Below the pieces are notes generated by a model, which had not been told where the DNA came from, searched no databases, and saw only the letters and a program-made list of their open reading frames with translations. Shown here piece after piece: positions 714 to 5,260 of a DNA stretch of 5,347 nucleotides. This DNA comes from a virus (taxonomy: Duplodnaviria; Heunggongvirae; Uroviricota; Caudoviricetes), in IMG/VR virus record IMGVR_UViG_2778261462_000003; one strand, written 5' to 3'. The first letter of the stretch is position 1. Every line of letters begins with the position of its first letter. Position numbers and translations under genes: made by a program.

Positions 714-1659
714 ACGCCCACTGGTTATAAACACGCAGCTGGCAATGAAAATTGGCTTAAACGAAGCCATTGTTTTGCAACAACTGCACTACTGGTTGAG
801 AGATACCAACTCCGGCATGGAATGTGATGGTGTTCGCTGGATTTATAACACAACGGAACAATGGCTGGAACAGTTCCCATTCTGGTCAGAGTCAACGTTA
901 AAGCGCGCGTTTGCAAGTCTGAAAACGCTGGGGCTTTTGCGTTGTGAAAAGCTCAATAAATCAAAGCGCGATATGACCAATTTCTACACGATCAACTATG
1001 GGAGCGAGCTTTTAGATGGTGGCAAATTGAGCGAATCCATCGGTTCAAAATGCGCCGCTCCATCAGGTCAAAATGACACGATGGAAGAGGTCAAAATGAA
1101 ACGCTCCATTGGTTCAAAACGACCCAATGTCATCGGGTCAAAATGGCCTGATGATCTTACAGAGAATACAACAGAGATTACTACAGAGAATAAAAACACT
1201 TTTCGTCCGGAAGCTTCGCAACCGGACCCGCAGACGACTGAACAGGATTTTTTAACCCGGAACTCCGACGCGGTTGTGTTTAGTGCGAAAAAACGCCAGT
1301 GGGGTAGCAGGGAGGATTTGGCGTGTGCGCAGTGGATCTGGGGGCGGATCGTGGGTCTCTACGAACAGGCAGCCAGTGATGATGGCGAGATCATGCGACC
1401 AAAAGAGCCTAACTGGACTGCCTGGGCCAATGACGTGCGCACAATGCGGATGCTGGATGGCAGAAGCCACAGACAAATTTGCGAAATGTTTGGTCGGGTT
1501 CAGCGAGATCCATTCTGGGTAAAAAACATCATGAGCCCGTCAAAGCTCCGCGAAAAATGGGACGAACTGGTCATCCGCCTGGGACGTTCACCTGTACAGC
1601 GTTGTGTTAATCATATTTCTGAACCGGATACAGAAATTCCGCCTGGTTTCAGAGGATAA
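694..1659 (+). CDS. Phage replication initiation protein (lambda O-like replisome organizer)
   Basis: The track ORF is 640-1659; I place the start at the in-frame ATG at 694 (MSLLFAERPLVINTQLAMKIGLNEAIVLQQLHYWL...), which resembles the N-terminus of phage replisome-organizer proteins as I recall them. An iteron array lies inside the gene and encodes the repeated SIGSK / VIGSK linker, the same arrangement as lambda O and ori. Starts at 640 or 745 are not excluded. Confidence 0.75.
   Translation: MSLLFAERPLVINTQLAMKIGLNEAIVLQQLHYWLRDTNSGMECDGVRWIYNTTEQWLEQFPFWSESTLKRAFASLKTLGLLRCEKLNKSKRDMTNFYTINYGSELLDGGKLSESIGSKCAAPSGQNDTMEEVKMKRSIGSKRPNVIGSKWPDDLTENTTEITTENKNTFRPEASQPDPQTTEQDFLTRNSDAVVFSAKKRQWGSREDLACAQWIWGRIVGLYEQAASDDGEIMRPKEPNWTAWANDVRTMRMLDGRSHRQICEMFGRVQRDPFWVKNIMSPSKLREKWDELVIRLGRSPVQRCVNHISEPDTEIPPGFRG
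1036..1145. repeat. Iteron array (probable phage origin of replication) inside the replication gene
   Basis: Five direct repeats, consensus about tCCATCrGkTCAAAAyG: 1036-1052 tccatcggttcaaaatg; 1059-1075 tccatcaggtcaaaatg; 1082-1098 degenerate, core aggtcaaaatg; 1105-1121 tccattggttcaaaacg; 1129-1145 gtcatcgggtcaaaatg. Repeat ends fall at 1052, 1075, 1098, 1121, 1145, i.e. spacing 23, 23, 23, 24 bp. Confidence 0.7.
1159..1189. repeat. Three ACAGAGA direct repeats at 12-bp spacing flanking the iterons (possible unwinding or accessory element of the origin)
   Basis: ACAGAGA at 1159-1165, 1171-1177 and 1183-1189, in a relatively A-rich stretch just downstream of the iterons. Lambda ori has an AT-rich region next to its iterons; the analogy is an inference. 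Confidence 0.35.
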
Positions 1660-3807: not shown

Positions 3808-3908
3808 ATACAGCGAACTCCATTGGTTTAGTTGGATATTTACTGTGCTGGACAAAAACGGTTTGCGGGGAAATCTTAGTTAAGTAGAATGACTGCGGGT
3901 GCTTGAGG

Positions 3909-3944
3909 CTATCTGCCTCGGGCATGGACACCAACGGCAGATAG
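3909..3944. repeat. Perfect 9-bp inverted repeat separated by 18 nt
   Basis: CTATCTGCC (3909-3917) and GGCAGATAG (3936-3944). The left arm overlaps a competing 5-bp stem, GAGGC (3905-3909) with GCCTC (3915-3919), so the two structures are mutually exclusive. Confidence 0.4.
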
Positions 3945-4037
3945 AGAAAAGCCCCAGTTAACATTACGCGTCCTGCAAGACGCTTAACATTAATCTGAGG
4001 CCAATTTCATGCTAGACACATGTAGGTTAGCCTCTTA

Positions 4038-4053
4038 CGTGCCGAAAGGCACG
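4038..4053 (+). other. Second GC-rich hairpin with GAAA tetraloop
   Basis: CGTGCC (4038-4043), GAAA (4044-4047), GGCACG (4048-4053). Same architecture as the hairpin at 2715-2730. Not followed by a T-tract. Confidence 0.3.
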
Positions 4054-4084
4054 GAGAAGCAGGCTATTGTTAACACCAAGCTGT

Positions 4085-4141: not shown

Positions 4142-5260
4142 ATGATCAAAGAGACTGTTACGATGAGTCATAAGGAACTCCACCGACTTCAGATTATTCA
4201 GGAACAAGCTGCGGCACGCATTGGCATTTCTATTCGGCAGGTTAAACGTCTGGTGCAACGGTATAGAAATGAAGGGCCTTCTGGTCTGGTTTCCCACCGA
4301 CGTGGAAAGCGTCCTAATAATTCCTTTTCTACTGAATTCAGAGCAACAGTAATTTCACTCCTCAAAGGCCGTTACGCTGATTTTGGACCTACGTTTGCGT
4401 GCGAAAAATTGCGCGAGATACACGGTTTATCTTTATCCGTTGAAACTCTCAGAAAGTGGATGATAGAAGAGGGGTTATGGCGTGAACGCCGTCGTAAAAT
4501 TGCCCGTATATATCAACGCCGCATGCGACGACCATCTTACGGTGAACTGATCCAGATTGATGGCTCACCTCATGACTGGTTTGAAAATCGAGGCCCCAGA
4601 TGTACACTGATCGTTTTCATTGATGATGCCACCAGTGCGTTGATGGCGTTGCGTTTTGTGCCTGCTGAAACAACCCGGGCTTACATGGAAACCCTCCGGG
4701 GTTACCTTAATGATCATGTCGTACCGCTCGCTCTCTACTCTGATAGACACAGTATATTCAGGGTAAATAACCCAGAGCGGGAAGGTGAGCTGACCCAGTT
4801 CACTCGTGCGATAAAGACACTGGGCATCGAGCCAATCCATGCCAACAGCCCGCAGGCAAAAGGGCGGGTAGAGCGCGCCAATCAGACACTACAGGACAGG
4901 CTGGTCAAAGAAATGCGGCTTCAGAATATCAGTGATATTGAAACAGCAAATGCATGGTTGCCGACCTTTATTGAAGCCTATAACAACCGGTTCGCTACGT
5001 CGCCTCGTACTACTGATAATGCTCATCTTGATGTGCACCATTCTGAAGAGGAACTGGGTTATATCTTCAGCCTACAGGCGAAGCGCGTTCTGTCTAAAAA
5101 TCTCACTTTCCAGTACAAAAGCAGTGCGTTTCAGGTACGCAGTGAGGGCCGGGGATATCGACTTAGGCATTCGGTTGTTACTGTATGCGAGAACTTTGAC
5201 GGTGAAATTAACGTTCTGTATGAACCGCCCCGGGTTTCCTGGAGAGTGTTTTATCTGTGA
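4142..5260 (+). CDS. DDE transposase with integrase-core (rve-like) catalytic domain, IS481/ISNCY-like
   Basis: 372-aa track ORF. N-terminal helix-turn-helix-like region (GISIRQVKRLVQRYRNEGPSGLVSHRRGKRPNN), then the catalytic triad in its usual contexts: IQIDGSPHDW, LALYSDRHSIF and KGRVERANQTLQDRL. Family assignment is from memory of ISNCY/IS481-type N-termini (MS.KEL.RL.IIQ...GLV..RGK.SN). The stop at 5258-5260 may be premature if homologs are longer. Confidence 0.75.
   Translation: MIKETVTMSHKELHRLQIIQEQAAARIGISIRQVKRLVQRYRNEGPSGLVSHRRGKRPNNSFSTEFRATVISLLKGRYADFGPTFACEKLREIHGLSLSVETLRKWMIEEGLWRERRRKIARIYQRRMRRPSYGELIQIDGSPHDWFENRGPRCTLIVFIDDATSALMALRFVPAETTRAYMETLRGYLNDHVVPLALYSDRHSIFRVNNPEREGELTQFTRAIKTLGIEPIHANSPQAKGRVERANQTLQDRLVKEMRLQNISDIETANAWLPTFIEAYNNRFATSPRTTDNAHLDVHHSEEELGYIFSLQAKRVLSKNLTFQYKSSAFQVRSEGRGYRLRHSVVTVCENFDGEINVLYEPPRVSWRVFYL

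Follow-up and report, generated by a model that had tools for sequence, protein, structure and literature searches.

The DNA analyzed here is a window of 5,347 nucleotides from the IMG/VR record IMGVR_UViG_2778261462_000003, and it corresponds to the early-right region of a Qin/Rac-type lambdoid prophage of E. coli. The window shares 99.9-100% identity with PhiR42_1, a phage that was obtained by induction of ECOR13, and 97-98% with the genome records of phages HannyBb and mEp460_ev081. In the O position, after cII, its plus strand carries an O-like replication initiator gene of 321 amino acids (positions 694-1659) that is 100% identical in PhiR42_1 and whose product gives a full-length profile match to phrog_391, 'replication initiation O-like' (E 1.1e-91; residues 17-321 against positions 11-298 of 298). 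The PhiR42_1 and HannyBb annotations name the gene 'DNA replication protein O' or 'replication initiation O-like', PGAP/RefSeq lists it as 'hypothetical protein', and about half of the complete E. coli genomes (2797 of 5426) contain a match to it. Inside it lie six copies of a 23-bp palindromic iteron, followed by three copies of a 12-mer. We consider it quite probable that the segment holding both sets of repeats (1015-1199) is the replication origin of the prophage, situated where the phage's own initiator gene codes for the linker and operating by the mechanism proposed below. The comparative evidence agrees throughout on this arrangement: iterons in the linker-coding DNA of the middle of the gene and then an AT-rich, A-skewed and easily melted stretch.

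The iteron array

The iteron is a 23-bp imperfect palindrome with consensus CATCGGGTCAAAATGACCCGATG, present in six in-register copies, five strong and one weak, that span 1015-1153. The copies start at 1015, 1038, 1061, 1084, 1107 and 1131, with spacings of 23, 23, 23, 23 and 24 bp. An initial annotation of this DNA had described five 17-mers at a strict spacing of 23 bp; these are indeed found at 1036, 1059, 1082, 1105 and 1129 and are real repeats, but their natural unit is the palindrome, their series extends to a weaker sixth copy, and the last step of the array is one base longer than that spacing allows. Iteron 0 (GATGGTGGCAAATTGAGCGAATC, 1015-1037) is the weak copy, in register and agreeing with the consensus at 14 of 23 positions, and its counterpart in mEp460_4F5 and in Klebsiella phages is a better one. 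Iterons 1 (CATCGGTTCAAAATGCGCCGCTC, 1038-1060), 2 (CATCAGGTCAAAATGACACGATG, 1061-1083) and 4 (CATTGGTTCAAAACGACCCAATG, 1107-1129) match at 18, 21 and 19 positions, respectively, and the second of them forms a good dyad. Iteron 3 (GAAGAGGTCAAAATGAAACGCTC, 1084-1106; 15 of 23) keeps only the left half-site, and iteron 5 (CATCGGGTCAAAATGGCCTGATG, 1131-1153; 21 of 23) is the copy closest to the proposed unwinding element. The consensus is self-complementary at 18 of its 23 positions and units 2, 4 and 5 at 16 each, and such inverted repeats suit a dimeric initiator.

Within the whole window, these six are the only sites that agree with the palindrome at 14 or more of 23 positions, and all five occurrences of TCAAAAYG fall inside the array. 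The self-match of the ORF (open reading frame) at a lag of 23 is 0.586, against 0.44 ± 0.023 in 1000 synonymous-codon shuffles, none of which reached the observed value, and 0.40 ± 0.017 in codon-order shuffles. As had been pointed out from the start, the 17-mers fall in different codon phases (0, 2, 1, 0 and 0) and the peptides SIGSK, SIGSK and VIGSK appear at phase 0 only; since the iterons are distributed over three codon phases, selection must act here on the DNA. The array is kept by mEp460_4F5, at 78% nucleotide identity, and by several Klebsiella phages, while Pantoea phage AH07 presents five iterons with the same 23-bp spacing and a different core (GGGCAAATTGCCC), followed by identical 12-mers. 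Absence of the repeats from close homologs of the gene would have spoken against an origin, and they are present in all the homologs examined, both close and distant.

The 12-mer tract

Downstream of the last iteron, three 12-mers occupy positions 1159-1170 (ACAGAGAATACA), 1171-1182 (ACAGAGATTACT) and 1183-1194 (ACAGAGAATAAA) of the plus strand, with consensus ACAGAGAnTACn and the in-frame readings T-E-N-T, T-E-I-T and T-E-N-K, and we propose them as the DNA-unwinding element (DUE) or loading site of the origin. They had entered the initial annotation as a detail, in the form of three ACAGAGA repeats; the repeats are there, the true unit is the 12-mer (1159-1194) and, by comparison across phages, this is the most widely conserved part of the element. 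Among the 40-mers of the ORF, the one at 1156-1195 has the lowest stability (dG -45.6, against -56.5 ± 3.6), and 1140-1199, with a GC content of 0.33 and an AT skew of +0.45, is where the gene is richest in AT and most A-skewed. The junction GATCTT (1153-1158), which includes a Dam site (GATC, 1153-1156), joins the last iteron to the first 12-mer, and 53 of 109 related unique ORFs, mostly enterobacterial, have a GATC no more than 12 nt before their first 12-mer. The 13-mers of oriC start with GATC, and the Dam site at the junction is reminiscent of them.

An Rfam search of the origin region returned no match. Inspection by eye led us to reject a DnaA box, an IHF (integration host factor) consensus, a DnaA-trio register and primase CTG/CTA start sites as probable explanations of the 12-mers.

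Domain structure of the initiator

The AlphaFold2 model of the initiator has a mean predicted local distance difference test (pLDDT) value of 60.5. Residues 1-109, coded by 694-1020 of the plus strand, are predicted at pLDDT 70-89 to form a domain of winged helix-turn-helix (wHTH) topology, which is presumed to bind the iterons. In alignments, this domain carries the hallmark LxQxxYW and belongs to a family defined by LxQxxYW and FPFWS..T.KR. Its predicted recognition helix comprises residues 66-79 (889-930, plus strand), with Ser67 (892-894) as the candidate specificity residue. Residues 110-175 (1021-1218, plus strand), at pLDDT about 30, are predicted to be a disordered interdomain linker, and a C-terminal domain follows (1231-1578, plus strand) that is homologous to that of lambda O according to BLASTP (residues 147-294 against 135-270; 34% identity over 148 aligned columns, E 1e-26) and helical in the model over residues 180-295. 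The C-terminal half of lambda O is the half that interacts with P. The origin DNA codes exactly for the unstructured segment between the wHTH domain and the lambda-O-like domain and, if the model is followed, it sits where constraint on the protein is weakest.

No Pfam family matches the window protein even at E up to 10, including DnaB_2, Phage_rep_org_N and PF04492 (Phage_rep_O), and in ten diverse relatives the N-domain has no Pfam match either, while lambda O, as positive control, matches PF04492 at 5.7e-36. Comparison of the N-domain family with the lambda O family by hhalign is not significant (probability 1%), and no sequence match of the N-domain to solved structures was found. Foldseek against the PDB retrieves weak wHTH neighbors of the N-domain, including the N-domains of the plasmid initiators 4pql, 4pt7 and 5kbj and that of DnaD (2v79); the top match, 4pql_B, is itself weak (E 0.031, template modeling score 0.56 on the target, 19% identity). 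The profile phrog_6493, 'DnaD-like helicase loader', matches residues 2-168 at E 1e-36. The parts also occur in other combinations: a relative from a Firmicute that shares both the N-domain and the 12-mers carries DnaB_2, and Klebsiella phages have the N-domain and the origin in common with the window but another C-domain (Phg_2220_C).

The initiator ends in a short tail (1594-1656, plus strand; ...VNHISEPDTEIPPGFRG) that resembles the C-terminus of E. coli DnaT. The tail aligns with positions 160-179 of the 179 in NCBIfam model NF002770, at E 0.002-0.006 and 16-18 bits against a cut-off of 201, and with the PDB DnaT chains 2ru8, 6aep and 9zbt at E 0.013-0.044. Variants of it, (I/V)PxGFRG, end many relatives, even those with unrelated C-domains, and the tail may represent a docking peptide for a host protein that replaces a phage loader. 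A 2026 paper on the preprimosome makes no statement on the role of the extreme C-terminus of DnaT.

With the N-domain profile, 15,998 cluster representatives (clustering at 50% identity) are matched at E ≤ 0.001. The initiator is, in short, very common yet unnamed in RefSeq, its N-domain lacks a Pfam model and no experimental work on it was found. The best-scoring representatives of the family, of 390-880 amino acids, align with the N-domain profile twice, in distinct stretches, which suggests a tandem duplication of the winged-helix domain in some relatives. Many database homologs retrieved with the N-domain are shorter than 200 amino acids and stop or change frame inside the repeat region, and in some of them the 12-mers are translated as LQRIQQRLLQRI; assembly or gene calling may break at the repeats, or the frameshifts may be real.

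Covariation of iterons and recognition helix

The presumed role of the N-domain can be approached through 118 unique N-domains of the subfamily to which the window belongs, typed by their iterons. The residue located two positions after FPFWS, Ser67 in the window, tracks the third base of the half-site GGNCA: among typed cases, serine goes with T in 37 of 37, aspartate with G in 23 of 24 and lysine with A in 4 of 4. When pairs of N-domains at least 75% identical have discordant iteron types, they differ at this helix-start residue in every case (25 of 25), and when they share the same type they differ there in only one of 231. The S/D rule recurs, moreover, in several sequence backgrounds (ES, GS, DS, VS and KS versus SD, VD, ED, PD, ID and KD). 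Of the evidence at hand, this covariation speaks most strongly for recognition of the repeats by the N-domain, and it supports a view of each type as a putative cognate pair, in line with the distinct initiator-origin specificity postulated in the initial annotation. It provides a testable rule of one residue and one base pair that would predict which phages and prophages share an origin specificity, and hence which of them cross-replicate, interfere with or exclude each other.

Distribution of the 12-mer word among phages

The exact triple pattern, ACAGAGANTACNACAGAGANTACNACAGAGA, is found in at least 120 IMG/VR contigs. Among the contigs listed, it directly follows an iteron array, the sequences of these arrays being otherwise unrelated and the GC content of the contigs ranging from 0.29 to 0.63; the iteron period is 23-24 in all 21 diverse representatives. 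At 122 of 123 loci a long ORF reads the pattern in codon phase 0, and in the 109 unique complete ORFs analyzed it is found in mid-protein. Across 336 units no variation occurs at the synonymous positions 3 and 6, which is partly an effect of ascertainment by the exact pattern, and position 12 is A or T only, whereas position 8, a second codon position and non-synonymous, varies freely (A 137, T 135, C 37, G 27). The ascertainment is addressed by a degenerate search that admits any Thr or Glu codon: strict ACA/GAG is used in 102 of the 120 matches listed, and the other 18 comprise 15 that depart from it by one or two bases and 3 protein repeats with no relation to the word.

A BLAST search with a 44-nt consensus retrieves 112 phage records, among them 34 from Acinetobacter, 17 from Bacillus, 17 from Stx phages, 12 from Klebsiella and 11 from Staphylococcus, in genes called O-like, DnaD-like or primosomal protein I. 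Phages of Erwinia, Pseudomonas, Xanthomonas, Vibrio, Burkholderia, Geobacillus and Synechococcus are matched as well, together with 58 plasmids, mostly from Bacillus. For an unbiased sample, 80 genome loci were picked by the N-domain peptide [LV][NS]EAI[VI][LV]QQ alone; they span Enterobacteria, Bacillus, Staphylococcus, Lactobacillus, Campylobacterales and Chloroflexi metagenome-assembled genomes. The perfect triple is present in 25 of these 80 loci. Among the 71 whose N-domain is unique and whose ORF is complete, the word AGAGAnTAC occurs at least once in the ORF in 51 and at least twice in 40, against a chance expectation of about 0.01 per ORF. Consecutive words in the unbiased loci are 12 nt apart in 66 of 74 cases and 11 nt apart in 4. 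Eight of 125 words stand in another codon phase and six loci hold the word in two phases, as in the Staphylococcus peptide ...T-R-D-Y-T-E-T-T-T-E-T-T... In the DNA ahead of the first word, 47 of the 51 loci show their best period at 22-24 bp, while shuffled sequence scatters over 27 lags. The strict motif, as a peptide pattern, is found in 48 of 140 representatives, and variants with one or two copies are seen in most of the 30 unmatched linkers that were inspected.

The word also occurs outside its gene. Plasmid pBSG3 of Bacillus amyloliquefaciens (NC_014104, 8.4 kb) carries three CCTACAGGGAAAG repeats about 23 bp apart and three perfect 12-mers. No initiator ORF spans this cassette (745-845 of the stretch examined), the sole ORF that crosses it uses another frame, and the only gene annotated in that stretch is 'protein rep'. 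The cassette could be a phage-origin decoy or a means of being replicated by an infecting phage, and its presence on a small Bacillus plasmid hints at the existence of origin decoys or of hitch-hiking. Fixed synonymous sites, use of other codon phases, a non-coding copy and constant spacing show together that selection acts on the 12-mer DNA word itself. A reading of the repeats at the RNA level, including one through Hfq or CsrA, seems less likely, the non-coding plasmid copy and the DNA context speaking against it.

Six prophage loci of Neobacillus and Bacillus present, at about 1200-1330, a degenerate 12-mer tract (CCAAAGATTACTnCAAAGAnTACTACAGGATAT) upstream of the initiator gene. This tract is apparently non-coding and is followed by a terminator-like hairpin.

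Of the 109 unique proteins that carry the motif, 105 were long enough to be split at it. Their N-domains group into three BLAST clusters (of 90, 14 and 1 members), with hhalign connecting the second to the first (96.7% probability, E 4e-10), and their C-domains into 18 unrelated clusters. Because there are three N-domain clusters against 18 C-domain clusters, the word goes with the N-domain family and not with the C-domain or the type of loader. The initiator class to which the window belongs can be defined by a wHTH domain with LxQxxYW, iterons with a period of 22-24 bp in the linker-coding DNA and, immediately after the last iteron, at least two AGAGAnTAC words 11-12 nt apart, and all three are found in the window. 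The word allows origins of this kind to be located from sequence in phages of many phyla.

Genetic context

The initiator gene is preceded by a cII/YdaT-like gene (192-713), with matches to the PHROG 'CII-like transcriptional activator' (5.5e-40) and to Pfam YdaT_toxin (4.5e-05), that overlaps the start of the initiator by 20 nt; in some database entries, 448-aa proteins with PF06254, the two are fused. The next gene after the initiator is DUF977/LygF/Ren-like (1700-2122), and it is followed by a truncated methyltransferase ORF of 118 amino acids (2119-2475) that covers positions 52-165 of a 229-position PHROG profile. Further downstream lie a sok antitoxin RNA (3897-4068; Rfam RF01794, 104 bits), within a toxin-antitoxin locus of the hok/mok/sok type, and an insertion sequence (IS) transposase of 372 amino acids with HTH and rve_3 domains (4142-5260). 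The truncated methyltransferase and the downstream transposase indicate that the prophage copy in the window is rearranged.

Neither a P-type nor a DnaC-type loader was found after the initiator, where positions 1660-2475 of the window hold the DUF977/LygF/Ren-like and methyltransferase genes. Likewise, no helicase or loader gene is annotated between O and Q in HannyBb (stretch 7060-11870) or in PhiR42_1. These two isolated phages carry the same initiator gene, as does a third, mEp460_ev081.

Proposed mechanism and alternative explanations

From these elements we infer a course of initiation in which dimers of the N-terminal winged-helix domain would bind the five or six dyad-symmetric 23-bp iterons, while Ser67, at the start of the recognition helix, would read base pair 3 in every GGTCA half-site. 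Set in phase, with about 2.2 helical turns per site, the array would then build a nucleoprotein complex similar to the O-some, and this complex would stress the adjoining unstable tract of three ACAGAGAnTACn 12-mers until it melts. Lambda O itself binds both its iterons and single-stranded DNA, forms an O-some and needs an AT-rich tract for unwinding (PMC7466680). The 12-mers are too conserved to be mere AT-richness, and for this reason we propose, by analogy with DnaA, TrfA and RepE, that they are probably also read as single strands, either by a conserved surface of the initiator or by a host replisome protein. Strand-specific binding of DUE repeats by DnaA and by Rep proteins, TrfA and RepE included, has been described (PMC10797057). 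Once melted, the 12-mer tract would mark the place where the host DnaB helicase is loaded. Given that no phage loader gene is present, helicase recruitment should proceed through the C-domain or the tail, and the lambda-O-like domain and the DnaT-like tail would presumably recruit host DnaB-DnaC or restart proteins.

Considered in the window alone, this is an expected element: a lambdoid origin inside an O-like gene, with an iteron specificity of its own. A broader proposal is that ACAGAGAnTACn is the signature unwinding or helicase-loading word of a very large initiator family, read single-stranded by an invariant surface, and that the S/D/K to T/G/A correspondence is the code of its iterons; we put this forward tentatively, as a possibility somewhat short of an even chance. 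Were it true, the word, usually in three copies, would have been kept at the DNA level in phages as far apart as those of Enterobacteria, Staphylococcus, Bacillus, Acinetobacter and cyanobacteria, with iterons free in sequence and fixed at a spacing of about 23 bp.

Several observations weigh against the reading of 1015-1199 as an origin of this kind, or against its generality. Iterons 0 and 3 are poor palindromes, the structure model is of moderate confidence only, the Foldseek matches are weak (E 0.03 or worse), and the covariation counts lack phylogenetic independence. The triple is not universal in the family, the exact word being absent from 20 of the 71 unbiased loci. The 12-mer was not found in the studied origins of lambda, SPP1 (oriL) and TP901-1 (rep), no validated origin of exactly this class was found, and the word is therefore not required for such origins in general. 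The prophage in the window carries an IS insertion, so that its origin may not be firing in this copy. Lastly, a literature search found no paper on the origin of this phage type and, within the searchable literature, which leaves older subscription papers outside, no description of the repeats in a phage origin; a paper on Obolenskvirus mentions only unspecified repeats in the replication gene.

Among the alternatives, one accepts the iterons as an origin and holds that the 12-mers are conserved since a host replication protein (helicase, primase, single-stranded DNA-binding protein or another that Gram-positive and Gram-negative bacteria have in common) reads them. The word does stay invariant while iterons and recognition helices vary and host GC content ranges from 29 to 63%, and its carriers differ in both C-domain (18 clusters) and type of loader, all of which would be natural for a site read by the host. 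The word, on the other hand, was found essentially only in one initiator family, or to the vicinity of its iterons, with the lambda, SPP1 and TP901-1 origins of other initiator families lacking it in the same hosts; on inspection, moreover, the word appears to hold no known host-factor site such as a DnaA box or an IHF consensus. We hold this explanation to be unlikely.

A second alternative regards the 12-mers not as an unwinding element, but as a recombination linker between exchangeable modules, namely N-domain plus iterons on one side and C-domain on the other, that would favor mosaic exchange among lambdoid phages. The joining of a single N-domain family to 18 unrelated C-domain clusters would fit such a linker; nucleotide homology with Klebsiella phages ends at 1192, at the end of the third 12-mer, and that with Pantoea AH07 consists of little besides 1131-1227. 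Second-order selection for recombination, however, is not likely to freeze synonymous sites from Staphylococcus to Burkholderia phages, and a linker predicts neither a triple repeat of 12 nt with low duplex stability and a fixed position after the iterons nor non-coding copies that keep the iterons and lack the gene. As the main explanation we therefore find it improbable, even though the two roles are not exclusive and a role as junction could add to the conservation of the 12-mers.

That the 23-bp palindromes are autoregulatory operators of a winged-helix regulator, and not an origin, would fit the resemblance of the N-domain fold to wHTH transcription factors and the GenBank name of the Klebsiella and Pantoea homologs ('transcriptional regulator'). 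The palindromes lie nonetheless in mid-gene, at least 320 bp downstream of the start, and no promoter-like site was detected in 600-1800; the family C-domains are lambda-O-like, DnaD-like or Phg_2220_C, and the gene occupies the O position after cII. The palindromes are followed by an easily melted repeat, moreover, in a layout shared with the proven origins of lambda and SPP1 (PMC7466680; PMC5737612), and we deem the operator reading very improbable. Finally, the notion that the repeats are a by-product of protein-level selection or slippage in a low-complexity linker (SIGSK and TENTTE peptides) is scarcely credible, for all that the region codes for a disordered linker and the 12-mers seldom leave one codon phase, when the iterons occupy all three phases with the peptide arising from only three of six, protein-preserving synonymous shuffles destroy the periodicity, and the 12-mers are fixed at synonymous and free at non-synonymous positions and recur in other phases and in non-coding DNA.

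An origin within the linker-coding DNA is thus the reading that we retain for 1015-1199. The question that the 12-mers pose is what reads a DNA word that stays fixed amid changing surroundings, and the answer bears on how an origin melts and how a helicase is recruited without a loader.

Comparison with known systems

The closest known arrangement is that of ori-lambda and lambda O, found also in the Stx phages 933W and P27, where the initiator gene similarly contains the origin, at the linker that joins its DNA-binding domain to its partner-binding domain. The iterons of lambda (TCCCTCAAAACGAGGGA) and of the window (GGGTCAAAATGACCC) are both dyad-symmetric around a CAAAAYG center, and in the two systems they are spaced by 20-24 bp, are followed by an A-rich, easily melted tract and lie in genes with homologous C-domains. 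The common center, when the lambda stretch 735-819 is set against 1038-1153 of the window, may reflect a convergent bent A-tract or very remote ancestry. Lambda O differs in its N-domain, which belongs to PF04492 and has no detectable homology to that of the window protein, itself without a Pfam family. The window, for its part, has five or six iterons versus four in lambda, three conserved 12-mers versus an irregular AT tract, a DnaT-like tail and no P gene. Of six lambda-origin features that can be checked in sequence, intragenic repeats, inverted repeats, an AT-rich tract and C-domain homology are present in the window, and the PF04492 N-domain and P-type loader gene are not; the likeness to lambda O and ori-lambda drawn in the initial annotation accordingly extends to layout and C-domain and stops short of N-domain and loader. 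Because these two are missing, the protein is not filed as a member of the lambda O family, and it is better viewed, as far as homology indicates, as an O-like chimera of a different DNA-binding domain and a lambda-O-like C-domain.

Some parts of this chimera resemble proteins known elsewhere. In E. coli DnaT, the last roughly 20 residues match the tail (SEPDTEIPPGFRG versus SEPDSQIPPGFRG), although the initiator has no relation to DnaT outside this tail, and a match so far under the family cut-off does not make it a full-length DnaT equivalog. From the DnaD-like or replisome organizer class, the window protein is set apart by lacking both a DnaB_2 C-domain and Phage_rep_org_N. The nearest solved folds to the N-domain are those of the RepA_N initiators from plasmids of Gram-positive bacteria, such as RepA of pSK41 and pTZ2162 (4pql, 4pt7 and 5kbj), the likeness being structural only and weak (E 0.03-0.2, 16-19% identity). 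RepA_N plasmids reportedly have an iterated origin in the center of the rep gene, and their N-domain is said to resemble that of DnaD.

In layout, a second parallel is provided by oriL of SPP1, located in gene 38 (G38P), which functions as an origin (PMC5737612) and in which iterons are likewise followed by short AT-rich direct repeats inside the initiator linker, three CAATGAWAA 9-mers being the equivalent of the 12-mers. SPP1 differs in N-domain, iterons and DUE repeats, and encodes its own loader (G39P) and helicase (G40P). More generally, short direct repeats of the DUE adjoin the duplex sites of the initiator in oriC (13-mers and DnaA), in the DnaA-trio system, in RK2 (13-mers and TrfA) and in the F plasmid (RepE), where the same initiator binds them strand-specifically as single strands (PMC10797057), and this is the model that we propose for the 12-mers. 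Those repeats vary from replicon to replicon, whereas AGAGAnTAC, at intervals of 11-12 nt, is common to phages of distant phyla with differing iterons. As a class, these origins look like an undescribed variant of the iteron-plus-DUE type, characterized by iterons about 23 bp apart, a 12-mer that does not vary and a simple recognition rule. If the tentative reading of ACAGAGAnTACn as a family-wide unwinding word is true, they would constitute the phage counterpart of the unwinding system formed by the DnaA box and the DnaA-trio.

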